Shown here: piece by piece, positions 1,871-64,000 of the stretch | How the letters are laid out: the number at the start of each line of letters is the position of its first letter | Numbering within the stretch: the first letter of the stretch is position 1 | Source: a phage | Sequence record: PV357171.2 | Strand: one strand, 5' to 3' | Length of the DNA stretch: 64,000 bases | Made by a program: the position numbers and the translations under genes | Notes under the pieces: generated by a model | Database searches by the model: none | What the model saw: the letters and a program-made list of their open reading frames with translations, nothing else | Told to the model about the DNA's origin: nothing

Positions 1871-1905
1871 TAGTCACGGTGTGTAATGATAACATGCCGT
1901 GACTA
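1871..1905 (+). other. inverted repeat (9-bp stem TAGTCACGG/CCGTGACTA, ~17-nt loop) downstream of dmp
   Basis: Read directly from sequence; not followed by a clear U-tract. Confidence 0.5.
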
Positions 1906-2017
1906 TTAGCTTGCTAAGTACCGGGCGGTAATGAGACTCATTCTCATCTGGGGGGCCACTGCACCCACCCACGCGTACGTAATCCAAAGAATTTGGCAAA
2001 AGTCATTTTAGTGCTAA

Positions 2018-2557
2018 TTAACTGTTTAATTGGGCAACGTCTGGTATACTTCCTTTGAACATCTCCTGTATTGCAAAGTCACCATGAAATGTCCTTCTTA
2101 GTAAATTTGCATAATTTACGGCATCTTCTAATCCGCTATAGGGAAAGTACTTAGTAGTACCCCTTATCAGCCCCTGTTTATCATGTAATCTTACCATCCA
2201 CTTCTGAAGTTCTTTATGCCATGTAACATTTAGATAGCCTGATGATGCTCTTGAGATTCTGCCATTATGATTATTCTCTGTAATTGAAGCCTCTCTTAAA
2301 TTTGACCATCTATTATTTAGTTTATTCCTATCTATGTGGTCTACACATTCCTCTGGCCATCTATTCTCCATAATAACAAAAGCTACTTGATGTGCATAAG
2401 CTTTAAACCCTCGATACTTAAGCTGCCTATATCCCCTATTTAAAGTACCTGCTTCTTTACCCTTACGATTGCCTCTTTTCCAGGTAAAAACTCCGGTTTC
2501 GGGATCATAAGCAAATACTTCTTGTATTTCCTGTATGTTTAAATTATTCTTCATCAC
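2018..2557 (-). CDS. HNH homing endonuclease
   Basis: N-terminal YDPETGxFxW motif shared with three other ORFs in window; HxDxNxxNNRxxNL HNH core. Confidence 0.7.
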   Translation of the reverse strand: MMKNNLNIQEIQEVFAYDPETGVFTWKRGNRKGKEAGTLNRGYRQLKYRGFKAYAHQVAFVIMENRWPEECVDHIDRNKLNNRWSNLREASITENNHNGRISRASSGYLNVTWHKELQKWMVRLHDKQGLIRGTTKYFPYSGLEDAVNYANLLRRTFHGDFAIQEMFKGSIPDVAQLNS

Positions 2558-2789
2558 TCACCTTTGCCCGAAATCTCTTCCGCGACGCCCGAGATCCATC
2601 CGACCACTCCCGCTCAAACTCCGCACGTTTCTCGTCAAACTTCCGCTCCCTTTCCGCAATCTTCCGCTCCCTTTCCGCAATCTCCCGCGATACTTCCGCA
2701 GTATACTTACGATGCTTGTTAATAGCCGCAGTCATTCCGAAAACTCCCGCAAGTACCCCGATAATAAAAGCAATTATAATACTAAACAT
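2544..2789 (-). CDS. small membrane protein (81 aa), N-terminal TM helix then highly charged ER/K-rich tail
   Basis: Hydrophobic segment FSIIIAFIIGVLAGVFGMTAA; charged repeat REIAERERKIAERERK; overlaps neighbours (coupled chain). Confidence 0.5.
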   Translation of the reverse strand: MFSIIIAFIIGVLAGVFGMTAAINKHRKYTAEVSREIAERERKIAERERKFDEKRAEFEREWSDGSRASRKRFRAKVSDEE

Positions 2790-5659: not shown

Positions 5660-6142
5660 ATGGCAAATGATGTATTAGTACCAGATCTTATGTCCCCTGA
5701 AGGGATGGATGTAATTGAAGCATATTTACAGTGTGGGAGTGATGTGCCTTCTGCCGCACGTAGTCTTGGAATGTCCGAAATTGCTTTTAGAGATATTATG
5801 AATCGTAGTGAAGTTAAGAACTACTTAAATGATATTTTTATGGAGAGTGGTTTCCGTAACAGAGATCGTTTATTTGGTGTTCTGGATGAAGTTATCAAGC
5901 GTAAACTAGAGGAACTAGAAGAAACTGGCATGGGTTCTGACCAAGATATTATGGATATTCTCTGGAAAGCACATAAAATGAAAATGGAAGAAATGAAAAT
6001 GATGGTAGAACTGGAGAAAGTTAAGGCAGCAGCCCGTACTCCAGCTAACCAGACCAACATCCAGAATAATATTATTGCTGGAGCTGGGGATCAAAACTAC
6101 ATGGACTTAATTACTTCCCTAGCTACTGGAGGTAAGAAGTAA
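5660..6142 (+). CDS. putative terminase small subunit
   Basis: 160 aa, HTH-like N-terminus, immediately upstream of and overlapping the large terminase start. Confidence 0.45.
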
Positions 6143-7458
6143 TGGAAGTATCAAGACCTTACGTTAATACAGTAGATGTTATTGATTTCGGAATAGATAA
6201 ACGTTTCTTTCGTCTACCTGTTTCGGGAATACTAGCACAAGAAGGTATTACACCTAATGGTCCTCAAATAGCGATTATTAATGCTCTAGAGGATCCTAGA
6301 CATCGTTTTGTAACGGCGTGTGTATCACGCCGTGTAGGTAAATCCTTCATCGCATATACTCTTGGGTTCCTAAAATTGCTGGAACCTAATGTGAAGGTGT
6401 TAGTAGTTGCTCCTAACTATTCACTGGCCAACATCGGATGGTCTCAGATTCGTGGTCTTATTAAAAAATATGGCCTACAAACTGAACGTGAGAACGCTAA
6501 AGATAAGGAAATTGAGTTAGCTAATGGTTCTCTGTTTAAACTAGCTTCCGCTGCTCAGGCTGACTCCGCAGTTGGACGTTCATATGATTTTATCATCTTT
6601 GACGAGGCGGCAATTTCCGATGTGGGTGGTGATGCCTTCAGGGTTCAGCTGCGTCCTACCCTAGATAAACCTAATTCTAAGGCTCTATTTATTTCCACCC
6701 CTCGTGGAGGTAACTGGTTTAAAGAGTTTTACGCCTACGGATTTGATGATACGTTGCCTAACTGGGTATCTATTCATGGTACATATCGTGATAACCCTCG
6801 TGCTGACCTGAATGATATAGAAGAAGCACGTCGTACGGTTAGTAAAAACTACTTCCGCCAGGAATATGAAGCTGACTTCTCTGTATTTGAAGGTCAGATT
6901 TTTGATACTTTCAATGCTATTGACCATGTTAAAGACCTTAAGGGTATGCGTCATTTCTTTAAAGATGATGAAGCATTCGAAACGTTGCTTGGTATCGACG
7001 TTGGTTATCGTGATCCTACAGCAGTTCTTACTATTAAGTATCATTACGATACGGATACTTACTATGTATTAGAAGAGTACCAGCAGGCGGAGAAAACTAC
7101 AGCTCAGCATGCTGCTTACATTCAGCACTGTATAGATCGTTATAAAGTTGATCGTATTTTTGTTGACTCCGCGGCAGCTCAGTTCCGTCAAGACTTAGCT
7201 TATGAGCATGAAATTGCATCAGCTCCAGCTAAAAAATCTGTCCTAGATGGCCTAGCATGCCTGCAAGCACTGTTCCAACAGGGTAAGATTATTGTAGATG
7301 CCTCATGCTCCTCCTTAATTCATGCACTGCAGAACTATAAGTGGGATTTCCAAGAAGGTGAAGAAAAATTATCCCGTGAAAAACCACGTCATGATGCTAA
7401 CTCTCACCTTTGTGATGCGCTGCGCTACGGAATTTACTCTATTTCCCGTGGTAAATAA
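6142..7458 (+). CDS. terminase large subunit
   Basis: 438 aa; Walker A-like VSRRVGKS, ATPase plus nuclease domain layout; length as I recall for T5 TerL. Confidence 0.85.
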   Translation: MEVSRPYVNTVDVIDFGIDKRFFRLPVSGILAQEGITPNGPQIAIINALEDPRHRFVTACVSRRVGKSFIAYTLGFLKLLEPNVKVLVVAPNYSLANIGWSQIRGLIKKYGLQTERENAKDKEIELANGSLFKLASAAQADSAVGRSYDFIIFDEAAISDVGGDAFRVQLRPTLDKPNSKALFISTPRGGNWFKEFYAYGFDDTLPNWVSIHGTYRDNPRADLNDIEEARRTVSKNYFRQEYEADFSVFEGQIFDTFNAIDHVKDLKGMRHFFKDDEAFETLLGIDVGYRDPTAVLTIKYHYDTDTYYVLEEYQQAEKTTAQHAAYIQHCIDRYKVDRIFVDSAAAQFRQDLAYEHEIASAPAKKSVLDGLACLQALFQQGKIIVDASCSSLIHALQNYKWDFQEGEEKLSREKPRHDANSHLCDALRYGIYSISRGK

Positions 7459-7467
7459 ATAAGTATA

Positions 7468-7506
7468 GGATGGGATACTACTCAGTTGGTATCCCATTCC
7501 TGCATT
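7468..7506 (+). terminator. stem-loop after terminase gene (GGGATAC...GTATCCC)
   Basis: Inverted repeat followed by T-rich tract. Confidence 0.5.
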
Positions 7507-7629
7507 TTAAAATCCCCTTTACAAATTCGATATGATTATGTATACTATATTCATTGATCGGGAGAACTTCTCCCATAATAGAACGTAAACAAGAAAAATT
7601 AATGCTCTACATGAGGTGTAGGAGATTCT

Positions 7630-8268
7630 ATGGGTCGACAAAAGCTAACAATAAAAGATATAAATACTAGATTAGCTGATCGTGGAATCCAAATTGTCGG
7701 TGAATATGTAAACCAGCGTACAAAAACAGTATTTAGATGCCAGAGAGCACACGTTTGGGAAGCAACACCACATTCTGTACTTCATATGAGGAGAGGTTGT
7801 CCACACTGCTCCAATAATACAATATCGTTAGATGAAGTTAGTAACAGAATATCTAATATAGGGTATACTCTGTTAAGCAGCTATACTAATGCTAAAACAA
7901 AACTACATCTACGTTGCAATAATGGGCATGACTGTTTCATTACCCTAGATGGATTGACTCAAGGTAAAAGATGTCCTTATTGTTCTCTTAAATGGGAAAA
8001 TGGCGGATTCCTCTATATCATGTCCTCCTGCAGAGGTACTAAAGTAGGCATAAGCTTATACCCTGAGAAGCGGCTGAACGAGGTTAAAAGAGAATCTGGA
8101 TTTTCTGACATATACTTGTTCACCGTGTATTATCTGCCGGATAGAGAGACTGCTTTAGATTTAGAGAAGGAAGTTCACAGAAAATATTATAATAAAAACT
8201 GTGGGTTTTCTAATTTTACAGGAAGTACGGAATTTTTTAATGTTGCTCCTGAAGATGCTTTCAAATAG
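7630..8268 (+). CDS. putative homing endonuclease, T5orf172/GIY-YIG-like domain with duplicated N-terminal zinc-ribbon modules
   Basis: Two repeats ending CPHC and CPYC; C-terminal GGFLYIM...GTKVGIS...R...E pattern; inserted between terminase and portal. Confidence 0.6.
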   Translation: MGRQKLTIKDINTRLADRGIQIVGEYVNQRTKTVFRCQRAHVWEATPHSVLHMRRGCPHCSNNTISLDEVSNRISNIGYTLLSSYTNAKTKLHLRCNNGHDCFITLDGLTQGKRCPYCSLKWENGGFLYIMSSCRGTKVGISLYPEKRLNEVKRESGFSDIYLFTVYYLPDRETALDLEKEVHRKYYNKNCGFSNFTGSTEFFNVAPEDAFK

Positions 8269-8494
8269 GGAAGCATTCTACAAGAAATATGAGCATGAGT
8301 TAGTTAGGGACGTGGTAACATTGTGCCAGCACCATCACCAATTATTACATAAGGTTTACACAAAAGAACCTCCTTTATTTTCTGCTAATAAGCAAAAAGT
8401 GTGGGTTCAAAAGCAGAAAGACAAATTACAGAATCCTCAAGAAAAGACACAAGTCAAGACTGAAACAAAATCAGGATTCGCAAGGTTCTTATAA
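8255..8494 (+). CDS. hypothetical small protein with His-rich HNH-like motif (LCQHHHQLLH)
   Basis: Track ORF 8201..8494, start trimmed to internal ATG; stop overlaps portal ATG (TAATG). Confidence 0.3.
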   Translation: MLSNREAFYKKYEHELVRDVVTLCQHHHQLLHKVYTKEPPLFSANKQKVWVQKQKDKLQNPQEKTQVKTETKSGFARFL

Positions 8495-9594
8495 TGGGTT
8501 TTAAAAGCTGGATTACTGAAAAGCTAAATCCGGGTCAACGTATTATAAGAGACATGGAACCAGTTAGTCATCGCACTAACCGTAAGCCTTTTACCACTGG
8601 ACAAGCCTACAGTAAAATTGAGATTCTCAATAGAACTGCTAATATGGTTATAGATAGTGCGGCGGAGTGTTCTTATACTACTCTCTTAAATGTACGACCT
8701 AATCCATTCATGGATATAAGCACATTCCGTAGACTTGTAGTCACTGACCTACTTTTTGAAGGTTGTGCATACATCTATTGGGATGGCACATCGCTTTACC
8801 ATGTCCCTGCTGCACTGATGCAAGTAGAGGCAGATGCCAATAAGTTTATCAAAAAATTTATATTTAATAACCAGATAGACTATCGCGTAGATGAGATTAT
8901 CTTTATAAAAGATAACAGTTACGTGTGTGGCACAAATTCTCAAATTTCTGGACAATCTCGCGTTGCTACTGTTATTGACTCTCTTGAGAAGCGTTCTAAG
9001 ATGCTTAACTTTAAAGAGAAATTCCTCGATAACGGAACTGTGATTGGTCTTATTCTTGAGACGGATGAAATCCTGAACAAGAAATTGCGTGAGCGTAAAC
9101 AAGAAGAATTACAACTAGATTATAATCCTAGTACTGGTCAGTCCTCTGTCCTGATAGACTTTAAGGAAGACATCGAAGGATTTAATAAATCCATCTGTCT
9201 AGCCTTTGGTGTTCCGCAAGTGCTACTTGATGGCGGTAATAATGCGAACATTCGACCAAACATCGAATTGTTCTACTATATGACTATCATTCCTATGCTG
9301 AACAAGCTGACTAGTTCTCTTACTTTCTTTTTTGGTTATAAGATTACTCCTAATACTAAGGAAGTAGCTGCATTAACACCAGATAAAGAAGCTGAGGCTA
9401 AACATTTAACCTCATTGGTTAATAATGGTATTATGACTGGTAACGAGGCTCGTTTAGAGCTGAACCTTGAACCTTTAGATGATGAGCAGATGAATAAGAT
9501 TCGTATTCCTGCTAACGTTGCTGGTTCTGCAACAGGTGTATCTGGTCAAGAAGGTGGTAGACCTCAAGGTTCCACCGAGGGAGATAAAGAATGA
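8494..9594 (+). CDS. portal protein
   Basis: 366 aa; position between terminase and prohead protease; translationally coupled to neighbours. Confidence 0.65.
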   Translation: MGFKSWITEKLNPGQRIIRDMEPVSHRTNRKPFTTGQAYSKIEILNRTANMVIDSAAECSYTTLLNVRPNPFMDISTFRRLVVTDLLFEGCAYIYWDGTSLYHVPAALMQVEADANKFIKKFIFNNQIDYRVDEIIFIKDNSYVCGTNSQISGQSRVATVIDSLEKRSKMLNFKEKFLDNGTVIGLILETDEILNKKLRERKQEELQLDYNPSTGQSSVLIDFKEDIEGFNKSICLAFGVPQVLLDGGNNANIRPNIELFYYMTIIPMLNKLTSSLTFFFGYKITPNTKEVAALTPDKEAEAKHLTSLVNNGIMTGNEARLELNLEPLDDEQMNKIRIPANVAGSATGVSGQEGGRPQGSTEGDKE

Positions 9595-10085
9595 TTGATT
9601 ATAATGGTCTAAAGACCATTTTTGGTGAAAAACTGCCAGAATCTCATATCTTCTTTGCTACGGTTGCTGCGCATAAATATGTTCCTAGCTATGCTTTTCT
9701 GCGTAGAGAACTAGGGCTTTCATCTGCGCATACTAACCGTAAAGTATGGAAGAAATTTGTAGAGGCTTATGGTGAAGCAGTTCCTCCGGCCCCACCGGCC
9801 CCACCATTAACTCTTTCTAAAGATTTAACTGCTAGCATGTCAGTTGAAGAGGGAGCAGCATTAACACTTTCTGTTACTGCAACTGGTGGTACTGGTCCAT
9901 ATACTTATGCATGGACTAAAGATGGTTCTCCTATTCCGGATGCTTCAGGAGCTACCTATACTAAACCTACAGCAGCAGCTGAGGATGCCGGCTCTTATAA
10001 AGTAACTGTAACAGATAGTAAGCAAGTAAGTAAGGATTCTACTGCATGTGCTGTGACAGTTAATCCTACTGTTCCTGGAGGCTAA
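9591..10085 (+). CDS. capsid decoration protein with C-terminal Ig-like domain (pb10-like)
   Basis: 164 aa; PPAPPAPP linker then Ig-like segment YTYAWTKDG...SYKVTVTD. Confidence 0.55.
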   Translation: MIDYNGLKTIFGEKLPESHIFFATVAAHKYVPSYAFLRRELGLSSAHTNRKVWKKFVEAYGEAVPPAPPAPPLTLSKDLTASMSVEEGAALTLSVTATGGTGPYTYAWTKDGSPIPDASGATYTKPTAAAEDAGSYKVTVTDSKQVSKDSTACAVTVNPTVPGG

Positions 10086-10088
10086 TAA

Positions 10089-10721
10089 ATGACACAAGCT
10101 GCTATTGACTATAACAAGTTAAAATCAGCACCCGTTCATTTAGATGCTTATATTAAATCTATTGATAGCGAATCCAAAGAGGGCGTTGTAAAAATCCGTG
10201 GATTCGCTAATACAATTAGTAAAGATCGCGCTGGTGATGTAATTCCTGCTTCTGCGTGGAAAACATCTAATGCACTTGCTAACTATATGAAAAACCCGAT
10301 TATTCTTTTCGGACACGATCATCGTCGTCCAATCGGCAAGTGTATTGATCTTAACCCTACTGAAATGGGTCTCGAAATCGAATGCGAGATCTATGAAAGT
10401 TCTGACCCGGCTATCTTTTCTCTAATTAAAAACGGTGTACTGAAAACTTTTAGTATCGGATTCCGCTGCCTAGATGCAGAGTGGGATGAAGCTACTGATA
10501 TATTTATTATTAAAGATTTAGAACTATACGAAGTTTCGGTAGTTTCTGTACCTTGTAATCAGGACTCAACGTTCAATCTCGCTAAGAGTATGAATGGTCA
10601 TGATTATACTGAATGGCGTAAATCTTTTACTGCAATAAGTTCTAAAGCTGTCCCAGCTCAAGAACGTAATCTTTCTGAACTAGAAAAACTTGCGATAGCT
10701 TTAGGCTACGTTAAAGAATAA
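10089..10721 (+). CDS. prohead maturation protease (HK97 family)
   Basis: 210 aa; position before major capsid gene; conserved His-containing segment FGHDHRRPIG. Confidence 0.7.
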   Translation: MTQAAIDYNKLKSAPVHLDAYIKSIDSESKEGVVKIRGFANTISKDRAGDVIPASAWKTSNALANYMKNPIILFGHDHRRPIGKCIDLNPTEMGLEIECEIYESSDPAIFSLIKNGVLKTFSIGFRCLDAEWDEATDIFIIKDLELYEVSVVSVPCNQDSTFNLAKSMNGHDYTEWRKSFTAISSKAVPAQERNLSELEKLAIALGYVKE

Positions 10722-10738
10722 CGGAGAATTATTTAAAA

Positions 10739-11296
10739 ATGACTATTGATATTAATAAGCTGAAAGAAGAACTTGGTCTGGGTGATCTGGCTAAATCTCT
10801 GGAAGGTCTGACCGCTGCTCAGAAAGCTCAGGAAGCTGAACGTATGCGTAAAGAGCAGGAAGAAAAAGAACTGGCTCGTATGAATGACTTGGTTTCTAAA
10901 GCAGTTGGCGAAGATCGTCAGAAACTGGAACAAGCTCTGGAACTGGTTAAGTCCCTGGATGAAAAATCTAAGAAGAGCGCAGAACTGTTTGCACAGACTG
11001 TAGAAAAGCAGCAGGAAACTATTGTTGGTCTCCAGGACGAAATCAAATCTCTGCTGGCAGCTCGTGAAGGGCGTTCCTTCGTCGGTGATAGTGTGGCTAA
11101 AGCACTGTACGGTACTCAAGAAAACTTTGAAGACGAAGTGGAGAAACTGGTTCTTCTGTCCTACGTGATGGAAAAAGGTGTATTTGATACCGAACATGGT
11201 CAGAGACACTTGAAAGCTGTAAACCAGTCTTCTTCTGTAGAAGTTTCTAGTGAAAGCTATGAAACTATTTTCTCCCAGCGTATCATCCGTGACTGA
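10739..11296 (+). CDS. major capsid protein, N-terminal scaffolding (delta) domain; frame terminates early
   Basis: Coiled-coil-rich 185 aa; followed in +1 frame by HK97-fold body. Confidence 0.7.
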   Translation: MTIDINKLKEELGLGDLAKSLEGLTAAQKAQEAERMRKEQEEKELARMNDLVSKAVGEDRQKLEQALELVKSLDEKSKKSAELFAQTVEKQQETIVGLQDEIKSLLAAREGRSFVGDSVAKALYGTQENFEDEVEKLVLLSYVMEKGVFDTEHGQRHLKAVNQSSSVEVSSESYETIFSQRIIRD

Positions 11297-11972
11297 GGTT
11301 AAAGGTGCTCTGACTGAAATCCACTTCAGTACTTACAAACTGGCTGCTAAGTCCTTCATTACTGATGAAACTGAAGAAGATGCAATCTTCTCCCTGCTGC
11401 CGCTGCTGCGTAAACGTCTGATTGAAGCACACGCTGTTTCTATCGAAGAAGCGTTTATGACTGGTGATGGTACTGGTAAACCTAAAGGTCTATTGACTCT
11501 TGCTAGCGAAGATGGTGCTAAAGTTACTACTGAAGCTAAAGCTGATGGTTCTGTTCTGGTAACTGCTAAGACTATCTCTAAACTGCGTCGTAAACTGGGC
11601 CGTCATGGTTTGAAACTGTCCAAACTGGTACTGATTGTATCTATGGATGCTTACTACGATCTGCTGGAAGATGAAGAATGGCAGGATGTTGCTCAAGTTG
11701 GTAATGATGCTGTTAAACTGCAGGGTCAGGTTGGTCGTATTTATGGTCTGCCGGTTGTAGTTTCTGAATACTTCCCAGCTAAAGCGGTTGATAAAGAGTT
11801 CGCAGTTATTGTTTATAAAGATAACTTCGTAATGCCACGTCAGCGTGCTGTTACTGTTGAACGTGAGCGTCAAGCTGGTAAACAGCGTGATGCATACTAC
11901 GTTACTCAGCGTGTTAACCTGCAACGTTACTTTAGTAATGGCGTTGTATCTGGTGCTTACGCTGCATCTTAA
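11250..11972 (+). CDS. major capsid protein, HK97-fold body (in +1 frame relative to delta domain)
   Basis: 240 aa; strong terminator downstream; continuation of capsid gene. Confidence 0.7.
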   Translation: MKAMKLFSPSVSSVTEVKGALTEIHFSTYKLAAKSFITDETEEDAIFSLLPLLRKRLIEAHAVSIEEAFMTGDGTGKPKGLLTLASEDGAKVTTEAKADGSVLVTAKTISKLRRKLGRHGLKLSKLVLIVSMDAYYDLLEDEEWQDVAQVGNDAVKLQGQVGRIYGLPVVVSEYFPAKAVDKEFAVIVYKDNFVMPRQRAVTVERERQAGKQRDAYYVTQRVNLQRYFSNGVVSGAYAAS

Positions 11973-16994: not shown

Positions 16995-17027
16995 GGCTCT
17001 GGGTGATTTGCCCAGAGCCTTTTTTAT
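16995..17027 (+). terminator. stem-loop plus T-tract before tape measure gene
   Basis: GGCTCTGGG...CCCAGAGCC then TTTTTTATTGGGAAAAATAAA. Confidence 0.7.
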
Positions 17028-17042
17028 TGGGAAAAATAAAAT

Positions 17043-32506: not shown

Positions 32507-32988
32507 TATTTAATTAAGTCCTCAACAGATGCATGATGTAGCCACGGCTCAAATAAACCAATTACGATTTCCATGTCTTTCTTATTTAACACCATATGGG
32601 TACGACTCATTAAGTTGTCAACCATCGGGTCTGAGCTATCCAAAGCTATTAACCACTGTCCTCTGTCTTTTTTGAATATTAATGCAGGTTTGGAGTTCAT
32701 CTGCTCACCTTCACGTGAGCACTGCTGCCACCACTTCTCTAGGGTGGATTCACCAACATTAAATAAATTACTTGATAATGCGTCGTCTTTATAATGTTTT
32801 ACTTCAAAACAGTACTTACTGATTTTGCCTGTTTGTGGTGGAAGGTAGATGTCACCTTTCAGTCCGTGGCTCTGGCCAAAAGCACCAGAGCCAGGCACTC
32901 TCTCCCACTCTAGCTTTGTTCGCTCTCTAAGAATATCTCTTACTTGATACTCAGCTCTTTTTCCTTTTTCTCTACTATCTACAGCCAT
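32506..32988 (-). CDS. hypothetical protein, possible PD-(D/E)xK nuclease (D14-like)
   Basis: 160 aa; D...EVK pattern (GDIYL...FEVKH). Confidence 0.35.
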   Translation of the reverse strand: MAVDSREKGKRAEYQVRDILRERTKLEWERVPGSGAFGQSHGLKGDIYLPPQTGKISKYCFEVKHYKDDALSSNLFNVGESTLEKWWQQCSREGEQMNSKPALIFKKDRGQWLIALDSSDPMVDNLMSRTHMVLNKKDMEIVIGLFEPWLHHASVEDLIK

Positions 32989-33479
32989 TATTCCTCTGGG
33001 AAATTTAATACTGCGAAATCTCCGAAGTATTCTTTTGCTTTAATATCATAGGCTTTTGCCGCAATTTCTTCAGTTGGGTAGCTACCAATATACTCAGTTT
33101 TTCTGCTGAAAGGATTGCCAATTCTAGCGATATAGCTCCTACCATTAAAATGGACTCCTCTAACTGTATTTGGGCTAGACCTATTAGCCATATTCTGGGA
33201 TCTAGAACAGTCTCTCAGATTTTCTATTCTATTATTACTAACATCTCTATCTATATGGTCTATTTCCTTTGGCCAATAATTATTGAACATAAAAAATATC
33301 AGTCTATGAACATACTCTTGCCTCTGGAACAAAGTAACCCTTAGATACCCGGCCTTATTAGGAGTACCTGCAGGTACTCCTGCCTTCATCCTACCCCTAG
33401 TCTGCTTATTTATTAGCAGTCCATCCCTATAATTATATCTATTCCAAAGGTATTCTACAGTAACTCTTGGATCAGCCAT
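32988..33479 (-). CDS. HNH homing endonuclease with C-terminal AP2-like DNA-binding domain
   Basis: HIDRDVSNNRIENL HNH core; C-terminal ...EEIAAKAYD... AP2-like. Confidence 0.7.
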   Translation of the reverse strand: MADPRVTVEYLWNRYNYRDGLLINKQTRGRMKAGVPAGTPNKAGYLRVTLFQRQEYVHRLIFFMFNNYWPKEIDHIDRDVSNNRIENLRDCSRSQNMANRSSPNTVRGVHFNGRSYIARIGNPFSRKTEYIGSYPTEEIAAKAYDIKAKEYFGDFAVLNFPEE

Positions 33480-42055: not shown

Positions 42056-42946
42056 TTATACCAAATCTTTAAGCGATTCAGCAACTAAAATTTCAATACG
42101 TTTTGCTAACATATCAATTTCATCTTTGTTTAAATCACCCGGATCTTTGCCTTCGGGCAGAAGAAAGTTAGCAACTACAGGTGTTAAACGCGTTTTTGTA
42201 CGAATTAACTTGGCCAATGCTTGTGCAGCTTTATTACCAGAAGCATCATTATCTAGTAAGATAACAACAACTTTTACACCGGCAATAATATAAGGACTGA
42301 ACTTATCTGCAATGTTATCCGAAGTAAACTGATGTGTACCAAAGCAGCAAGAAGCATAGTCTATACCATTATCCTCTAGGTTCAGCATATCAAAGATACC
42401 TTCAACTAGAATAAGAACTGGAGTATTATATCGTACAGGGAAAATCGGTGGTGAAACTTGTTTTGGTTTTACTAAGTATTTAGGAGGGGCAGAACTGTTT
42501 ATAGAACGACCCAAAAATAGGATATTGCGTCCAACAGCATCTGTGATTGGGAATACAATTCTGCCTTCCCAGTCTGCTTGATGTTGGAAAGCAAAATATT
42601 TCTTCAAGGTCTTAGAACTTATACCTCGGAAATCACCTTCGAAAAGGCAAGCAGATTCAGGAATTGCAAGATTCGTTGATCCATTCCTAATCTCTGAAAT
42701 CTTTTTACGTACTTGCGATAGTCTTGGGGACTGTCGGTACTGAGTCTCATTAAAATAATGGTAAATGCTCGGTATACCTTTACCGAAGCCACAACTCAAG
42801 CAGTGCATAATACCTGTTTCAGGATCAATACGCAAACTTGGGTGTTTATCGTCATGATCTGGATTGAGACAACAGATGAGGATGTCCCCACCTGTGTCTT
42901 TATATTCAATGCCTTTCAGATCAAGTAGTTCTGTTATTCTACTCAT
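42056..42946 (-). CDS. DNA primase (zinc-binding plus Toprim)
   Basis: CxxC...HCLSCG zinc motif; Toprim-like LVEGIFDM. Confidence 0.8.
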   Translation of the reverse strand: MSRITELLDLKGIEYKDTGGDILICCLNPDHDDKHPSLRIDPETGIMHCLSCGFGKGIPSIYHYFNETQYRQSPRLSQVRKKISEIRNGSTNLAIPESACLFEGDFRGISSKTLKKYFAFQHQADWEGRIVFPITDAVGRNILFLGRSINSSAPPKYLVKPKQVSPPIFPVRYNTPVLILVEGIFDMLNLEDNGIDYASCCFGTHQFTSDNIADKFSPYIIAGVKVVVILLDNDASGNKAAQALAKLIRTKTRLTPVVANFLLPEGKDPGDLNKDEIDMLAKRIEILVAESLKDLV

Positions 42947-47216: not shown

Positions 47217-47489
47217 TTATTCTGCCTCATAGTACGTGGGCTGTCTAGTGGACCCGTGCCATGTATAATTTTTGCAAAGATGCAAATATGTAGTTTTTAC
47301 TAGCCTATCTGACAACGGAGAGTATATTTCAGCTGTTAATACTTCTTTTTCGTAATGAAGTGAAATCAGCTTATACCCACTTCTAGTTTTAGTATACTTT
47401 TCTCCATTAATCTTCTCCTCCCACATAAGTATAAGAGGCTGTCCGATACATGGGAAAGGTTTAAGTGTACTTATATTTATCTTTTTCAC
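47217..47489 (-). CDS. hypothetical early protein (90 aa)
   Basis: ORF track; promoter upstream. Confidence 0.4.
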   Translation of the reverse strand: MKKINISTLKPFPCIGQPLILMWEEKINGEKYTKTRSGYKLISLHYEKEVLTAEIYSPLSDRLVKTTYLHLCKNYTWHGSTRQPTYYEAE

Positions 47490-49786: not shown

Positions 49787-50245
49787 TTAATTTGGATAGA
49801 GTTCGGACTTAAAATTAGCCCTAACTTTTTTAGCCTCTTCTATAGTATTGCACTGCTGGTACTTACGAATAGATCCTTTCTGCATTAGCACACAATATTT
49901 ATCGCCCCTCATGTAGATATTAGGCTCGCCCAACTTATTGTCTTTACGCACATTAATATTGTGCATTTGCTTAGATCTATTGGAGTCTTCTAAATTCTCT
50001 ATAAAGTTGCAATCTTTAATCCTGTTTTTGTGGTCTATCTCTTCTGGTATGTACCCCTTATGATATAAGAATACCAGCTGATGCTCTCCCCAGTGCCTAC
50101 GCTTAAACCCTATTCTTATATACCCTTTATGTTTACCCCCGGCAAACTTACCTACTAGACTCTTCTGTCTTGTTTTCTTCCATTTAAGATGGCCTGTTTC
50201 AGGATCATACTCAAAAGCCTCTCTAACCTCTTCCTGTGTTATCAT
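49787..50245 (-). CDS. HNH homing endonuclease
   Basis: YDPETGHLKW N-terminal motif; EIDHKNRIKDCNFIENL HNH core. Confidence 0.7.
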   Translation of the reverse strand: MITQEEVREAFEYDPETGHLKWKKTRQKSLVGKFAGGKHKGYIRIGFKRRHWGEHQLVFLYHKGYIPEEIDHKNRIKDCNFIENLEDSNRSKQMHNINVRKDNKLGEPNIYMRGDKYCVLMQKGSIRKYQQCNTIEEAKKVRANFKSELYPN

Positions 50246-50457: not shown

Positions 50458-53244
50458 TTATTCTTCACTGTCATTTCTAGCACCTAGCTCTGACATTGCT
50501 TCCTCGTGCATCTGACGTTCTTCCTCTGTCATGAATTTGAAAGGAATTGGCATACACTCGATTTTACAATAGGTTCTGTACCAGTCTACGATATTCTCCG
50601 TGTTCATATCTTTACCAATACCCATCATACCAAGATACATTCTAGCATATTTTGGGTTAGCACTCTGACCTGTTTTAAGGAAGAAATCTTTCTTCTTACC
50701 TTTCAGAGCTTCTATGAAAGGTTTGATAGTGACATTTGAACACTTCTTAATATCTTCCCAGAACATCTCATGCATCTTATGGAAGAATGCAGCTCGATCA
50801 TTCGGCTTATCTTTGATATATTGTTCAACATGCTCAACGGTTACATCTTTAATAGACTCCAGATGATAATAGCGAACAAGAAGTAGTTTAGCTTCATACG
50901 CATCCGCATGACGTGGAGCACAATAATCAGGAGTTGAGTGCAGAATAGCTTTGATTCGCTCTTCTGTATACTCTTTACCAGCACCTTCAATAGTTCCCCA
51001 GCTTTCACTGAAAATATCAATAGTTGCACCCTGATCAAGTAAGTAATAACGTAAAGTACTAGTATAGTTCCTAGATTCCAGCTCCCTGCGACGTGCGTAT
51101 AATTGCTGTGCTAACTCCAGCCAACCCTCATCAATATTATATTGTTCAGAACCTGCGGAGAATCCACTAGTGGATTTATCAATAAAATAATAGATATTCT
51201 GAGCACCACGGTCGCGCCTGATTGCTTGGAAACGCATGTTTGGCGCTTGATTACTGGTTCTAGTAATAACAAATACGTTATCAAAATAGTTGAAGTCAAC
51301 TCCACTCGTTACGGATGGACTACATAATAAGCAATCAATTTGTTGATCAATTAGCTCATTAGTTGTATAATCCAGAATACGTCGAATATCCACATCTGAG
51401 GTAGAGTTTGAATGGATTTCCTTAACTAACGCACCCGTATTACGACGCAGTGCCATACCCTTCTCATTCAGTTCATCCGGTCCACAGTCAGATACTAGGA
51501 TAGATTTTTCACCCATCTCTAGAGATGTCTGAAGTGCAACCCAAATACTGGATTCATCCGGGAACTCATAAGCATGAGCTTTTGATAGCATTTTACGGTG
51601 ATGATTATAGAATGCAACTGGTTTATCGAACTCAATCAAAGAACCATATGCTTCAATTGTTTCAGCACTAATATCACCATCTGATAGTATAATGATTTTT
51701 GCAGTTGCAAGAATATCACGAAGAACCTGAATACACTCACGACGTTGTTTAACAACCGGGGCGAATAATAGGTCATTCATTACTGCATCACATTCATCGA
51801 TAAAGATTGCATCAATTTGACCAATAAAACTCTTGAACTTATGCAAAGAGTGAATAGTTGTGGACATACGGTCAATAGCACCACGCTTAAAATTAAGCAT
51901 ATCTACAGACTTATCATATTGTCCTGCACTAAATTTCTTGGCATTTGAAGACACCAGTGCTCTAGTATTGGTAATTGCTAAGAAATTACCTTTAATAACT
52001 CCTGAATCCAGCCAACGAACAACAGCCGTTGTTTTACCTGTGCCTAGACTTGCTTTTACAAAAGTCATATAGCCTTCTGGTGGTACAGTATTTAATTTCA
52101 AGAAGTTGTCGGTCTCTAGTGAATTAGTTTCTAGCTTTTTAAGTGGAATACCTTTTAAAATATCCGGTATATCACGTTTAGAATTATTAACAAACGCTTT
52201 CAGAGCCTGCTTACGACCGTTGTTAAAGTAATCTTGAATATTACGACTATTATCTTTAGTTGCAATATATTCTGATAAGGCTGGACGGATTTCTTTTTCT
52301 AGCCATGCGAAGTCAACACCATCCTCTAAAGCTCTGTGATAGAGTTTAGGTATGATACGTAGGTACACTCCATCCTCAGCTTCTTCTAGTTCGCTGATAG
52401 TTTCCTCTACTTTATCAGAGGCAGCTTTTTTACCTTTAATTTGATCGAGTAAAGAGTAAAACTCCTCTTTAAACTCACCTCTAGTTGTTTCATAATCAAC
52501 TAGATTATTGGGTAAGTTTACCTTAGAACCCTTAACAAATACCAGACGTGAAGCACCCTCCGCTTTAAACGGATCTACTATACCATCATTAAATAACGGA
52601 TCTGCAAAATAATGGAGCTGTACGGAAGAGTAATAAGCTAAGTCGGCAATATCAAAGCCATACTTTTGTCTACTACTTTCGTTGATAGATGTAAATAAGA
52701 ATTTGATTTGACCCTGAGTCACTTTAATATTAGATTCTAGTATTAAGTGCATTCGGATACCTGGTTTTAGCCCGGCCGAAGACGATGCATGAGCGATAAA
52801 CCCTGCATCAAGAGGAAACATATCCTCACTAATACTATTTAACATTCTAATAATATGTCGAGCCATGCCAACAAGATCAAACTTGTTACAACCACCTGTA
52901 TCTACAATACCATCCACGTCCATTGCGATTATATGACTTGGGTTAGATACATTAAAGTTGCCCTTCTTACGTCGCACATTATTTTTAGGTGCAAGACATC
53001 GACCTCGTACCGCAACGATATGAGGGTCAGACGTTAAACGTCTCATAAGAGGAAGCATTTCTACTAGGGTTTGAGGATCAACTTCATCAATTACATCAAA
53101 CTTGAAGGGCATTGAAGCTGGTTTACCTTCAGGATGCTTTGAGGAAAATCTTTTAGCAAAAAGATAATCTTCTGCTTTAACTTCTCGCCAATTACCTGTG
53201 GCTAAATCGCGATGAAATCCTGCATGACCTTGTAGGATTGAGAA
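50458..53244 (-). CDS. putative replication initiation / origin-binding helicase-like protein; start trimmed to GTG with SD AGGAG
   Basis: Walker A GTGKT and Walker B IFIDECD in central region; ~930 aa; track ORF start (TTG 53325) lacks RBS. Confidence 0.5.
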   Translation of the reverse strand, partial: FSILQGHAGFHRDLATGNWREVKAEDYLFAKRFSSKHPEGKPASMPFKFDVIDEVDPQTLVEMLPLMRRLTSDPHIVAVRGRCLAPKNNVRRKKGNFNVSNPSHIIAMDVDGIVDTGGCNKFDLVGMARHIIRMLNSISEDMFPLDAGFIAHASSSAGLKPGIRMHLILESNIKVTQGQIKFLFTSINESSRQKYGFDIADLAYYSSVQLHYFADPLFNDGIVDPFKAEGASRLVFVKGSKVNLPNNLVDYETTRGEFKEEFYSLLDQIKGKKAASDKVEETISELEEAEDGVYLRIIPKLYHRALEDGVDFAWLEKEIRPALSEYIATKDNSRNIQDYFNNGRKQALKAFVNNSKRDIPDILKGIPLKKLETNSLETDNFLKLNTVPPEGYMTFVKASLGTGKTTAVVRWLDSGVIKGNFLAITNTRALVSSNAKKFSAGQYDKSVDMLNFKRGAIDRMSTTIHSLHKFKSFIGQIDAIFIDECDAVMNDLLFAPVVKQRRECIQVLRDILATAKIIILSDGDISAETIEAYGSLIEFDKPVAFYNHHRKMLSKAHAYEFPDESSIWVALQTSLEMGEKSILVSDCGPDELNEKGMALRRNTGALVKEIHSNSTSDVDIRRILDYTTNELIDQQIDCLLCSPSVTSGVDFNYFDNVFVITRTSNQAPNMRFQAIRRDRGAQNIYYFIDKSTSGFSAGSEQYNIDEGWLELAQQLYARRRELESRNYTSTLRYYLLDQGATIDIFSESWGTIEGAGKEYTEERIKAILHSTPDYCAPRHADAYEAKLLLVRYYHLESIKDVTVEHVEQYIKDKPNDRAAFFHKMHEMFWEDIKKCSNVTIKPFIEALKGKKKDFFLKTGQSANPKYARMYLGMMGIGKDMNTENIVDWYRTYCKIECMPIPFKFMTEEERQMHEEAMSELGARNDSEE

Positions 53245-53782
53245 CACAACAATACTCCTGTGTTGGAAATGAAATAAGTTTTCTTTAGGACTATTCAGAA
53301 AGAATAGAACAACTGTTACTGTCAATTTCTCAACAAATTAATCGCAAATACTGAAGTGGGGTGGCAACTTCCACTTTCACGCTACACTGCCGCTTCACTA
53401 TACCGCACAAATCCTTGAGGATGGCCGCTAAGCCAGATTTGCTCACCTAATGCTTCATGTACTAGCTCATACTAGATGCAGTATACCTTACGTCATCACT
53501 TCTCAGAGTTTTTCACTCTTCCCGTCTCACTTCACAACCACCTCACACTAGGTTGCTTCGAGGCCTTACCAGGGTTCCTACGGGGTGTAGATCGCTAAGT
53601 ATTCTATTAACTATTTGTTTAAAAACTAACACGTAACAGTTAAAACAACCCTTAATGGGGCAGCCTAACTGTTCCGTATCGCGGATTGTAAACAAGAAAA
53701 ATTAGCAAAATCAGTTTTTACTAATGTCTCTCAATTATGGGAATATTATACTATAAAATAATACTCCCTTGCAAATGAAATT

Positions 53783-54238
53783 TTACTGGATTGATTCCCT
53801 ACCGTATAATTGACCTCTAAACATCTTGGCCATAGAACATGCAACCTCATAGTTATCATATGTTCCTTTAACTATACGTTTACGGTTAATAGTAAATACT
53901 ACTTGCCAGTTCTTACTACCAGAAGGGTAAACATGCATTCCTTTCTTATACTTGATATTTCTTAGATTACCGGATACTGTCTGCTCTCTAAGATTTTCAA
54001 TACGATCATCACCTTTTACAGTATTCACATGATCTACTAAATCAGGTAAGTATCCGTGATGCATTAAGAAGATAGCTCTGTGTCGGAGCATAGTTCTACT
54101 CCCTAGAGAAATACGGTAATAACCATTTCCCGTTGAAACACAACATTCCTTGCCTGCATTTCTTCCTGTAGTTCTAAATAATTTTCCATCTTCATATCGG
54201 AAATTATCTAAAAGTTCCTGTTGTGTGAGCGACATCTT
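53783..54238 (-). CDS. HNH homing endonuclease; start trimmed to ATG with SD GGAGG
   Basis: DLVDHVNTVKGDDRIENL HNH core. Confidence 0.65.
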   Translation of the reverse strand, partial: KMSLTQQELLDNFRYEDGKLFRTTGRNAGKECCVSTGNGYYRISLGSRTMLRHRAIFLMHHGYLPDLVDHVNTVKGDDRIENLREQTVSGNLRNIKYKKGMHVYPSGSKNWQVVFTINRKRIVKGTYDNYEVACSMAKMFRGQLYGRESIQ

Positions 54239-54374
54239 TACCTCCAATACATATATTATTACATAATCCACCCAATTTGTCAATGACAATTTATTCATAC
54301 TGTCAATTAACTGGAAAGATTATATAATAATCCGAGCCAAAATGACTCGGTAGTCAGAGTTCAGCTAATAAAAA

Positions 54375-57363: not shown

Positions 57364-57391
57364 AGCTTTCTCCTCTCAAATTTATAAATCA

Positions 57392-57420
57392 ATTATACAT
57401 AAATTTTTGGCTGAAAGCAA
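57392..57420 (-). promoter_or_regulatory. T5-type early promoter (TTGCTT-17-TATAAT)
   Basis: Read from sequence; conserved downstream AAATTTGAGAGGAG. Confidence 0.6.
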
Positions 57421-57462
57421 ATAAAATAAAAGCCAGGTCGACTAGCAACCTGGCTGATTAGC

Positions 57463-59289
57463 TTACTTAAGATTTAAGTGTTTTACTCTACCAAGTACTT
57501 CTTTTTGTTTCCCAGAATTGAAAGGCCTACTGCCCGGGGATCCCAGGTACCCGCAAACCCTACGTGTAACCTCTATTTCTTCAGATCCACAACTCGGACA
57601 TACAAACCCACGTTCAGAGGCAACAGATTCACCCATATACCCACAGTTGAAGCACTCATCAATTGGTATATTAACACCAATATAATGACTACATTCTAGT
57701 CCCTTATCTACTACGTATTCAAGAGCTTTATGGAACTTTTTCATTTGTGGTAGTTCCACAAACGATATATTACCACCATTAGCTATTTTGGTGAAATGAG
57801 CTTCATACTCAAATTTAGTATCCGGAGCTACCTTCTCCCTTACGTCCAAATGATGACTATTAGTGAGATAGCCTTTATCTGTTAGCCAAGAATACTCAGG
57901 GAACCTACGTTCCAGTAGTTTATTAAAGCGATTACATAGAGACTCACTAGGAGTAGCATACAAGCTAAACCCAAGATTAGTCTCATTAGCTTTAACTTCG
58001 CAACGATTTTTTAGGTGAGTAAGAACTTCCTCTGTAAATTCAATACAGTCCCTATGAGTCTGCGGTAAACTAAACATTATTTGGCACATCTCATAGACCC
58101 CAATATACCCAAGAGATACAGAAGATCTACCCTCAAAAATTGGCCATACATACTCTTCCCTATCTAAACGCACACCAAAACCACCGTGCATATAAAGAAT
58201 AGGGGCTTGTTTAGCCTTCACTTTCTTAAGTCTATCCAAGAAAAAATCATGAGCTTCAAAAGCCTCATCCACATATTTGTCCAGAATATCCCAGAAATCT
58301 TCAAAAACCCCATCTGCCTCAGCAGCAACCATAGGTAGATTAATAGACACTACACCTAAATTATTGCGCCCTGCAATTTCTCCGGAGGGGATAGCAGATA
58401 AAAAGCTACGACAACCCATAGGGGCTTTAAAATCACCAGTAACAGCTATAACTTTCTCATAGCTTAAATAGTCTGGGTACATACGGGTAGCAGAACACTC
58501 AAGTGCTAGCTGTTTTATATCATAGTTAGGATCGCCTGGATTTTTATTTAACCCTTCTTTAACTGAGAATACTAGTTTAGGGAAGATAGGGGTTGACTCG
58601 GCAGCACCTAAACCTTTAATACGATTTTGGAGGATGGCTTTCTGAATCATCCTTTCCTCCCACTCCTGACCTAATCCAAAGCCAAGCGTAACAAAAGGGG
58701 TCTGCCCGTTAGAGTTAAATAATGAATTAGTTTCATACTCTAGAGCTTGGAATGCATCATAACACTCTTTTTCAGTAAGCTCAGTAGCATACACAGCAGC
58801 TTTTCTTTCATCCTTGAGCCAACGTAGCCCACGACCCAGATGTTTATTGTAAGACTTTCTGACATACGGGGCTAGAACCTCGTCGATACGATCAATAGAG
58901 GTACCACCATACTGAGCACCAGATACTTGGGCAATAATCTGAGCAGTGATTGCACATGCAGTAGTTATGGATTTAGGAGTTTCAATATTTGCATTACCGA
59001 TTTTAGTACCATTCTTCAGCATGCCCCCCAGATCTACTAAACAACAGTTGGTGTACCCTTGTGCTCTGTAGTCCATGTCATGAATGTGTATTTTACCTAG
59101 ATTATGCGCGTCTAACAGGTGTTTAGGTAATTCTTGCGATACTAAATACTTGTTAATTTCCCCAGCTAATAAGTCCCTTTGAGTATGGAACATCTCACTA
59201 GGCTTATTAGCATTATTATGTTGTAAGTCTTTATCCGCAGTTAGAGTGAGCAGACCTTTGCAATTTTCAATTAATTCATTCTCTGTCAT
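57463..59289 (-). CDS. nrdD: anaerobic ribonucleoside-triphosphate reductase (class III)
   Basis: 608 aa; C-terminal glycyl-radical motif RVCGYLG; zinc-binding Cys cluster CFNCGY...CPSCG. Confidence 0.85.
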   Translation of the reverse strand: MTENELIENCKGLLTLTADKDLQHNNANKPSEMFHTQRDLLAGEINKYLVSQELPKHLLDAHNLGKIHIHDMDYRAQGYTNCCLVDLGGMLKNGTKIGNANIETPKSITTACAITAQIIAQVSGAQYGGTSIDRIDEVLAPYVRKSYNKHLGRGLRWLKDERKAAVYATELTEKECYDAFQALEYETNSLFNSNGQTPFVTLGFGLGQEWEERMIQKAILQNRIKGLGAAESTPIFPKLVFSVKEGLNKNPGDPNYDIKQLALECSATRMYPDYLSYEKVIAVTGDFKAPMGCRSFLSAIPSGEIAGRNNLGVVSINLPMVAAEADGVFEDFWDILDKYVDEAFEAHDFFLDRLKKVKAKQAPILYMHGGFGVRLDREEYVWPIFEGRSSVSLGYIGVYEMCQIMFSLPQTHRDCIEFTEEVLTHLKNRCEVKANETNLGFSLYATPSESLCNRFNKLLERRFPEYSWLTDKGYLTNSHHLDVREKVAPDTKFEYEAHFTKIANGGNISFVELPQMKKFHKALEYVVDKGLECSHYIGVNIPIDECFNCGYMGESVASERGFVCPSCGSEEIEVTRRVCGYLGSPGSRPFNSGKQKEVLGRVKHLNLK

Positions 59290-63804: not shown

Positions 63805-64000
63805 ATGAAATTAACACAGAGTAGATTAAAAGAGCTAATCTCCTATGACCCTGAAACTGGCGAATTTACCTGGCTCCCAAGAAAAACTTTAGCAAAGCAT
63901 TTATGGAATGCTAAAGCAGGAACCTACGATAAATTAGGGTATCTTCGTATAAAAGTTGAAGGAGTTCAATATTTAGCTCATCGCCTAGCCTTCTTGTATA
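63805..64000 (+). CDS. HNH homing endonuclease, 5' part (continues beyond window)
   Basis: N-terminal SYDPETGEFTW motif shared with other HNH genes here. Confidence 0.6.
   Translation, partial: MKLTQSRLKELISYDPETGEFTWLPRKTLAKHLWNAKAGTYDKLGYLRIKVEGVQYLAHRLAFLY

Follow-up and report, generated by a model that had tools for sequence, protein, structure and literature searches.

A T5.154-type endonuclease gene linked to one haplotype of the nicking-endonuclease gene in a T5-like phage: the probable footprint of free-standing homing

The seven endonuclease genes carried by the stretch of phage DNA analysed here (64,000 nucleotides, sequence record PV357171.2; hereafter, "the window") are very likely free-standing homing endonuclease genes. 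One of them, the T5.154 ortholog located between the large terminase gene and the nicking-endonuclease gene T5.153 (also known as sciA), is hereafter called the focal gene and very likely homes together with a linked tract of sciA. Actually, a single exchange cassette, which exists in two haplotypes, unites the T5.154-type gene with two-thirds (the 5' part) of the nickase gene. This is only a modestly new point, as the homing-endonuclease finding is real and already known for T5-like phages: homing endonuclease genes are the main source of differences among T5-like genomes (PMC10644984, PMC12639943, PMC8594841), and a variable "endonuclease between terminase and nicking endonuclease" was noted earlier (PMC10194208).

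The window comes from the genome of a T5-like phage (Tequintavirus). By megablast, its positions 6000-10000 match 450 phage records, nearly all of them T5-like phages of Escherichia and Salmonella, the best match being KS_S14 (97.9% identical), with T5 at 95.6%; across the focal locus, T5-like phages are 94-98% identical to the window. T5 and the window are colinear, in reverse orientation, and the window starts where the pre-early region ends (dmp), continues with the late structural genes and then the replication genes, and reaches nrdA. The original prediction, made from the sequence, had listed seven endonuclease genes of two types, and all seven open reading frames are present where it had placed them, with one end shifted by one codon (their strands are added here, in Table 1). 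The two types are also confirmed: (i) of the five HNH genes, the four complete ones match Pfam HNH_3 and the truncated fifth matches PHROG 99; and (ii) both zinc-ribbon/T5orf172-type genes match DUF4379, CapR, T5orf172 and MUG113, with every Pfam match above its cut-off. The shifted end belongs to the HNH gene that had been given as 53783..54238, which does exist but whose ATG lies one codon inside that end. Likewise, the focal gene does follow the large terminase gene, as had been described, but it is not the immediate neighbour of the portal gene, since a truncated T5.153-type gene intervenes before the latter.

Table 1. Coordinates in the window of the endonuclease genes and of the features of the focal locus.
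Feature	Position	Strand	Evidence or remarks
Inserted HNH_3+AP2 endonuclease gene, 179 aa	2018..2557	-	Pfam HNH_3 45 bits; carried by 13/372 records
Terminator-like hairpin	7468..7499	+	Consensus scan; just past the large-terminase stop codon (7458)
Promoter-like site, TTTACA-17-TATACT	7518..7546	+	Consensus scan, 10/12 matches
Inserted cassette, left part	7555..8256	+	Alignment of the window with two contigs carrying the focal gene and four without it
Focal ORF, T5.154 ortholog	7630..8268	+	212 aa
T5.153/sciA remnant, codons 67-145	8255..8494	+	96% identity to T5.153 aa 67-145; PHROG 3497
238-bp deletion junction	8257	.	BLAST and alignments against T5, IrisVonRoten, SPLA5b and KS_S14
HNH_3+AP2 endonuclease gene, 163 aa	32988..33479	-	Pfam HNH_3 53 bits; carried by 14/443 records
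HNH_3+AP2 endonuclease gene, 152 aa	49787..50245	-	Pfam HNH_3 40 bits; carried by 36/492 records
HNH_3+AP2 endonuclease gene, 150 aa	53783..54235	-	Pfam HNH_3 43.5 bits; carried by 23/438 records
Second zinc-ribbon/T5orf172 endonuclease gene, 223 aa	59276..59947	-	Pfam; carried by 10/438 records
HNH endonuclease gene, first 65 codons	63805..64000	+	PHROG 99, E 7e-18; carried by 29/435 records

Seven endonuclease genes in 64 kb is a normal density for the T5-like family. This number is not unusual because nine HNH enzymes are reported for T5 itself (bioRxiv 10.64898/2026.04.02.716235), in addition to T5.154 and T5.141, both of which it carries. The repertoire differs from phage to phage: five of the window's seven genes are missing from T5 and six from KS_S14, and T5 hegI, hegJ and T5.141 are in turn missing from the window, where their sites are clean and empty. 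When the window ORFs of 50 aa or more were searched with phmmer, no further paralogue of six of these proteins appeared. All seven genes are minority presence/absence alleles among several hundred related phage genomes. The two observations that the original prediction had named as speaking against it, namely, inactive catalytic motifs and presence at the same positions in all relatives, were therefore not made: on alignment, the motifs are intact where they are present in the window, and each gene occurs in a minority of the relatives only. Thus, as regards domains, motifs and distribution at each site, these are free-standing genes of the homing type.

The focal protein shows 95% amino acid identity to T5.154, which is annotated as "endonuclease" in the T5 RefSeq record (YP_006982, YomD-like). 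Its ortholog in the BASEL phage IrisVonRoten (bas32_0003) is annotated as "putative homing endonuclease". Both T5.154 and bas32_0003 share with the focal gene its position (from the large terminase to T5.153) and its domains. The version present in the relatives has 224 aa instead of the 212 aa of the window. The ATG of the window, with its AGGAG site, corresponds to the start of this 224-aa version, which is the start used in most other records; the T5 RefSeq start is longer (277 aa) and runs over the terminator/promoter region.

The following domains are matched above the Pfam cut-offs by the focal protein: (i) T5orf172 (PF10544; 29.7 bits for a cut-off of 20; aa 126-211); (ii) MUG113 (PF13455; 36.4 bits for a cut-off of 22.3; aa 126-211); and (iii) DUF4379, a treble-clef zinc finger, together with CapR. 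Two treble-clef zinc ribbons (C37/H41/C57/C60 and C96/H100/C115/C118) can be distinguished, as well as a C-terminal T5orf172 (GIY-YIG-like) nuclease domain which occupies about aa 124-210. The zinc ligands of both ribbons are invariant across orthologs and paralogues down to 36% identity, and the same is true of Y129, G136-T-K-x-G-x-S142, R148, E179, H183 and E201-F-F, all of them residues of the T5orf172/GIY-YIG type. In other words, the protein retains the core residues of this class, i.e., the aromatic residue, K-x-G-x-S/T, the Arg and the Glu near E-F-F; by analogy, E201 (or E179) would be the catalytic Glu. Since a sequence search of the focal family against the PDB gave chance matches only, a comparison of folds was used. 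The AlphaFold2 model (mean pLDDT 80) comprises two small beta-hairpin/helix modules and then a beta-beta-alpha-beta-alpha domain, and the closest solved structures are those of the GIY-YIG nucleases SLX1, I-TevI, UvrC and Eco29kI, so that the predicted model has the GIY-YIG alpha/beta fold. NCBIfam gave nothing informative, and no published assay of the cleavage activity or the target site of T5.154 or its orthologs was found in the literature searched. From its domains, the zinc-ribbon modules would be expected to bind a specific DNA site and the T5orf172 domain to cut it.

T5orf172 homing endonucleases combine repeated zinc fingers of the CapR/DUF723/DUF4379 type with a T5orf172 nuclease (a GIY-YIG subfamily), and they mark boundaries of genetic exchange (PMC10448857). 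The T5orf172 enzymes of ICP1-like vibriophages (Barth, Dunham & Seed 2023, PMC10448857) share with the focal protein the architecture of zinc fingers plus C-terminal T5orf172 domain, and their genes, like the focal gene, sit where the identity between related phages changes abruptly. However, they belong to another phage family and have another target locus, and their sequence resemblance to the focal protein is at the domain level only. Compared to I-TevI, the domain order is reversed, as the nuclease of the focal protein is C-terminal. In relation to the I-TevI/seg-type GIY-YIG enzymes of T4 and to I-HmuI, the focal zinc ribbons are presumed to be DNA-binding modules, and no intron is involved here.

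Regarding the locus, several of the listed genes had been credited with their own promoter and terminator. For the focal gene such an attribution does not hold: both the promoter-like site and the terminator-like hairpin are nearly identical in genomes with and without the gene (the hairpin is conserved in contigs L008, L009, L012 and L013, which lack it) and, because they are conserved in carriers and non-carriers, they must be assigned to the locus and not to the insertion. The matching stretch of T5 is annotated as "putative promoter" in AY692264. In phages without the gene, the promoter-like site lies directly 5' of the nicking-endonuclease and portal genes, while in the window it lies 5' of the inserted gene. 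The focal gene, then, was inserted downstream of a late promoter and ahead of the next gene.

The boundary of this insertion was aligned in contigs that encode a TerL protein 100% identical to that of the window (six contigs, of which two have the focal gene and four do not). On the left side, the boundary is exact at 7554/7555, immediately after the hairpin and the promoter-like site. In its left part, the cassette comprises the endonuclease gene, as far as the deletion junction (see below), and, 5' of it, a leader containing a hairpin (GGGAG..CTCCC), together with an AGGAG ribosome-binding site. In general terms, the focal gene is carried by 74 of about 440 T5-like records, a carrier being defined as a record that covers at least 80% of a query formed by the 3' end of TerL, the gene and the 5' end of the portal gene. 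In most T5-like records, among them BF23, oldekolle, TrudiGerster and many Salmonella phages, only the flanks are matched (the Bas phage SelmaRatti is likewise without the gene), and the span from TerL through the nicking endonuclease to the portal measures 1,295 bp in non-carriers versus 2,016 bp in carriers. A 54%-identical gene is found at the same site in Klebsiella T5-like phages, again in some genomes and not in others. Presence and absence at a precise site are hence observed among near-identical genomes. The gene family as a whole was found in 224 phage records, at up to four places per genome and with paralogues at unrelated loci.

The right boundary of the cassette is not the end of the focal gene but a point inside the downstream sciA gene. 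Carriers and non-carriers show 71% nucleotide identity over the first 279 nt of sciA versus 98.7% beyond them, and the upstream terminase gene is 95-100% identical between both groups. Within each class, the 279-nt tract is 98-100% identical. Between the two haplotypes, the tract encodes 75% identical protein, with 29 synonymous and 23 non-synonymous codon differences. The carrier-type tract is present in 83 records, 70 of which have the 3' end of the focal gene, and the other allele in 339 records. A diverged flanking allele is, in short, linked to the gene, which is the pattern that co-conversion of flanking markers leaves. In addition, degenerate copies such as those of a homing cycle are found in the focal gene family: (i) 13 records with the carrier-type sciA tract have no intact gene but only its last ~55 nt; (ii) genomes of the Gostya9 type have a decayed copy whose start codon has changed from ATG to ACG and from which roughly 470 bp have been lost or have diverged beyond recognition; and (iii) DT571/2 keeps codons 2-48 only.

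Taken together, an insertion at a precise point, the diverged flank linked to it, the decaying copies and the recurrence at a single site are what a free-standing homing endonuclease gene classically leaves behind. The cycle proposed for the focal gene would begin with the co-infection of one cell by a carrier and a non-carrier phage. The enzyme would then cut the "empty" allele, probably near the promoter or in the 5' region of sciA, and the break would be repaired by recombination with the genome that carries the gene. This repair would copy in the endonuclease gene and, along with it, about 280 nt of diverged 5' sciA sequence, which would presumably make the carrier immune to its own enzyme. 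That the enzyme cuts, where its target site lies and that the linked allele is immune are all inferred from the above pattern. In any case, about 70 records (88-96% identity) form a clade in which the focal gene is fixed and, in consequence, the pattern is explained in part by vertical descent and occasional loss; moreover, the two sciA haplotypes could be the result of an old recombination event unrelated to nuclease targeting.

A decidedly unlikely alternative is that the focal protein acts mainly as a weapon, which would cut competing phages or satellites, or as a regulator, whose zinc fingers would repress the late promoter in the manner of I-TevI and CapR. T5orf172 and CapR domains have indeed been co-opted for phage-satellite conflict and transcriptional repression (PMC10448857, PMC8096241), and the gene is located right behind a promoter. 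Nevertheless, a cassette with exact boundaries, a linked diverged flank and a series of decaying copies is the classic signature of the homing cycle, and the exclusion of non-carrier relatives is, after all, the same biochemical act as homing.

As for the other six genes, to which the homing interpretation also applies, each of them was used as a query with about 400 bp of flank per side, a carrier being a record with at least 80% query coverage; the denominators shown in Table 1 are the records with any match to the query. The four complete HNH ORFs reach 40-53 bits against HNH_3 (cut-off 24.8) and also match PHROG 99, "HNH endonuclease". The C-terminal halves of the HNH proteins are AP2-type DNA-binding domains (PDB 7WQ5, E 1e-16), and there is a weak match to I-HmuI, an HNH_3 nicking homing endonuclease. 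When aligned with T5 hegE, hegJ, hegH and hegI, all four complete genes keep the DH and the terminal Asn of the D-H...N...N motif, the middle Asn being replaced by Asp in the 53783 gene and by Tyr in T5 hegH. Both the profile and the motif consequently place the four complete genes in HNH_3.

The insertion sites of the HNH genes are the following: (i) the gene at 2018..2557 lies at T5's inner terminal-repeat boundary, adjoining dmp, where it replaces T5 111444-111636, and its protein is 41-45% identical to T5 hegJ and hegE; (ii) the gene at 32988..33479 is a clean insertion of ~485 bp between D13 (SbcC-like) and D14 (RusA-like), at T5 79611/79617, and its protein matches PDB 7WQ5 in the AP2 domain and, weakly, I-HmuI (1U3E); (iii) the gene at 49787..50245 is flanked by the D2 helicase gene and by the homolog of T5.110, with the nearby T5 hegI site being empty in the window; (iv) the gene at 53783 is an insertion relative to T5 58973-59042, and the inserted segment (about 53751-54328) includes, according to the promoter scan, a strong promoter-like site at 54283-54255; and (v) the gene at 63805 follows nrdA and is cut by the end of the window before its catalytic motif. 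The empty sites of the HNH genes include D13/D14, D2/T5.110, T5.107/T5.108 and nrdA/nrdB.

T5 hegE (annotated as "H-N-H-endonuclease F-TflV"), hegH, hegI and hegJ share with the HNH genes of the window the HNH_3+AP2 composition and the DH...N...N motif, at 24-48% identity. Of these, hegH, hegI and hegJ are annotated as HNH endonucleases or putative P-Tfl enzymes. None of the four T5 genes is an ortholog of the window genes and the insertion sites differ; the gene at 63805 occupies the intergenic site of hegH although it is another member of the family (32% identity to hegH, 48% to hegJ/hegE). The HNH genes of the window gave no significant match to T5 hegA and hegD, and one marginal match only to hegC. 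The experimentally characterised F-TflI, II and IV are enzymes of the tRNA region, as the work of Akulenko et al. (2004) is reported in PMC5714182.

The second T5orf172 gene is located between nrdD and phoH, just as the original prediction had it. Its protein is 36% identical to the focal one and reaches 41.6 bits for T5orf172 and 39.8 bits for MUG113. The gene is absent from T5 and KS_S14, and next to it there is a promoter-like site (59997-59969) with 11/12 matches. The 5' stretch of nrdD beside the gene is 66-69% identical to T5/KS_S14 versus about 93% elsewhere and, with such a diverged flank, this second T5orf172 gene shows the same cassette pattern as the focal gene.

The HNH genes had also been brought into connection with the site-specific nicks of T5 virion DNA, a suggestion that finds no support: the T5 nickase is a separate core protein, T5.153, and none of the seven listed genes resembles it. 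T5.153 (145 aa) is encoded directly downstream of the focal gene in all relatives. It is annotated as "nicking endonuclease" in many records (sciA in Gostya9) and bears the precomputed Pfam label PF26848, Phage_T5_Nicking_endo. It matches the PDB entries 9QGV/9QGX, "Nicking endonuclease", over its full length (E 7e-96), with His42 as the only difference (Gln or Ala in the crystallised proteins). As a core gene, it is present in 83 + 339 records, which amounts to practically every T5-like genome. It does not belong to the homing genes, and its zinc-HNH core (CxxC...HH...CxxHH) is unlike the HNH_3 domain of the HNH genes of the window. Since the virion nickase is a separate and structurally solved core gene, it would be wrong to put forward the HNH homing genes as nickases. 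No paper on the structure of the T5 nickase was found in the literature searched. The "sciB" label of the old AY692264 record sits on the small terminase gene and not on the nickase.

The T5.153/sciA gene was absent from the earlier list of seven genes. In the window, homology to PF26848/T5.153 is found only in the unlisted remnant at 8255-8494, and in none of the seven listed genes. This remnant is devoid of start codon, CxxC motif and H42, and its 5' stretch, to about 8335, still belongs to the haplotype linked to the homing endonuclease gene. The ORF at 8201-8494 is a GTG-started chimera in which residues 19-97 alone match T5.153 (residues 67-145).

The position of the focal gene inside the terminase/nicking-endonuclease/portal block, where it would be driven by the same late promoter-like site, together with its constant linkage to one allele of the catalytic half of the nickase, could evoke a domesticated factor, accessory to DNA packaging or nicking, that works with the terminase or the nicking endonuclease. 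This reading is very improbable: roughly 80% of T5-like genomes are without the gene and yet keep terminase, nickase and portal (a packaging role suggested by position was rejected on this same ground); BF23 lacks the gene, yet its DNA is nicked like that of T5 (PMC10644984); and decayed copies are tolerated and paralogues reside at unrelated loci, up to four per genome.

The remnant of sciA is due to a 238-bp deletion at 8257, which was found in the window alone and in none of the relatives compared. Through this deletion, the focal gene loses its last 48 nt and T5.153 its first 201 nt (codons 1-66). In consequence, the last three codons and the stop of the focal ORF are read from out-of-frame nickase sequence past the junction, and the protein ends 12 residues early, with its ~15 C-terminal residues replaced by three unrelated ones, which is what distinguishes it from T5.154. 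The true C-terminus is probably that of the relatives, ...APEDIVIFL(S/N)SFGLEEYGH. Neither the catalytic core nor either zinc ribbon is affected, the change being limited to the residues after 209.

Three further deletions are specific to the window: (i) two, of 60 bp and 57 bp and located at 8680 and 9155, whereby 20 and 19 aa are lost from a portal protein that is otherwise 99% identical; and (ii) one of about 144 bp, at 11293-11294, which introduces a TGA into the major capsid gene and breaks its frame. The four deletions are all within 8257-11294, and a comparison of all ORFs with KS_S14 revealed no other disrupted conserved gene in the 64 kb. The junction sequences are absent from IMG/VR, JGI metagenomes and GTDB genomes, and the exact 212-aa focal and 366-aa portal proteins are in none of the public collections searched, where three of the other endonucleases had no exact counterpart either. 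Since no phage is viable with a broken capsid gene, the deletions are most economically read as either a sequence artefact (e.g., poorly covered stretches dropped from the consensus) or the mark of a defective molecule; the 238-bp deletion that truncates the focal gene is probably an artefact. Loss of restriction fragments and microhomology were discarded as the origin of the deletions, since the homology at the junctions is 5 nt at most and XbaI-like sites do not fit the deleted lengths. As the deletions affect the nickase, portal and capsid genes, this sequence must be treated with caution, and, if the 238-bp deletion is real, the focal copy of the window may be impaired. It is nonetheless most improbable that the focal copy is simply a dead gene or a sequence artefact in a locus that, as written, is not a functional phage: the four clustered deletions, with none elsewhere, the broken capsid gene, the shortened portal and altered proteins and junctions seen in no public collection do point in that direction, but the catalytic core and the zinc ribbons of the focal protein are untouched, and the other six endonuclease genes and all the other conserved genes are intact.

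Beyond correct annotation, the finding that the seven genes are homing endonuclease genes matters little. An unlikely extension of it is that the homing of the T5.154-type gene drags along the catalytic N-terminal two-thirds of sciA and thereby swaps nickase alleles between T5-like phages; in a weaker variant, which applies if the 238-bp deletion is real, the phage would be a natural nick-less relative of T5. If the swapping of alleles were true, and the alleles differed in site preference, a selfish gene would be redistributing the nick patterns of virion DNA across the family. In any case, the cassette with its two haplotypes offers a concrete, testable candidate for the region that a T5orf172 enzyme targets, and it does so in a coliphage that is tractable.

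The 5' leader of the T5.154 ortholog (window 7555-7629) opens with the inverted repeat GGGAG AACTT CTCCC, which lies directly 3' of a promoter-like site common to the locus. This repeat is kept in all carriers of the gene. Decayed copies of the gene are also found: in the relative Gostya9, ACG stands in place of the start codon, and the copy keeps only ~145 nt at its 5' end and ~55 nt at its 3' end, the middle being lost or diverged. Such decayed copies occur in 13 database records.

Directly downstream, the gene for the T5.153/sciA nicking endonuclease, whose structure has been solved (PDB 9QGV/9QGX), survives in the window as a remnant without codons 1-66, a loss that includes the CxxC motif and His42. 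This truncation belongs to a set of four deletions (238, 60, 57 and about 144 bp), seen against every close relative and clustered in 3 kb, the rest of the window being free of such deletions. Their effects are as follows: (i) the nickase gene is truncated; (ii) the portal is shortened by 20 + 19 aa; and (iii) the frame of the major capsid gene is broken, giving ORFs 10739-11296 and 11250-11972. The cluster is probably a sequence artefact or the mark of a defective genome.

Positions of deletions, remnants, empty sites and an additional ORF
Feature	Position	Strand or comparison
Deletion junctions	8257; 8679/8680; 9155; 11293-11294	vs close relatives
T5.153/sciA virion-DNA nicking endonuclease remnant	8255-8494	+
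Clean empty site of T5.141 (zinc-ribbon endonuclease, adjoins tape-measure gene)	17022-17028	
Clean empty site of T5 hegJ (between D6 helicase and primase)	42943-42946	
90-aa ORF between ligA gene and T5.115 homolog	47217-47489	-
Clean empty site of T5 hegI (after origin-binding protein gene)	50471-50478	
Decayed T5.154-type copy, between terL and sciA	437-956 of L015 (Gostya9, NC_047979)	

Elsewhere in the window, the 90-aa ORF is housed in a 277-bp insertion; T5 and KS_S14 lack the ORF, and its product bears no likeness to the endonucleases described for the window. In window 1874-2569, the HNH gene 2018-2557 stands in for T5 111444-111636, the segment in which the terminal repeat of T5 has its inner boundary (T5 111532); a homing gene thus lies right at this boundary next to dmp, or replaces it.

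Where nrdD (window 57375-59218, - strand) adjoins the second T5orf172 gene, it shares only 66-69% identity with T5 and KS_S14, and the regions around this part are about 93% identical. At the phoH-nrdD junction, most database records match the phoH side alone. Together, the diverged part of nrdD and the T5orf172 gene look like a second endonuclease-linked exchange cassette.
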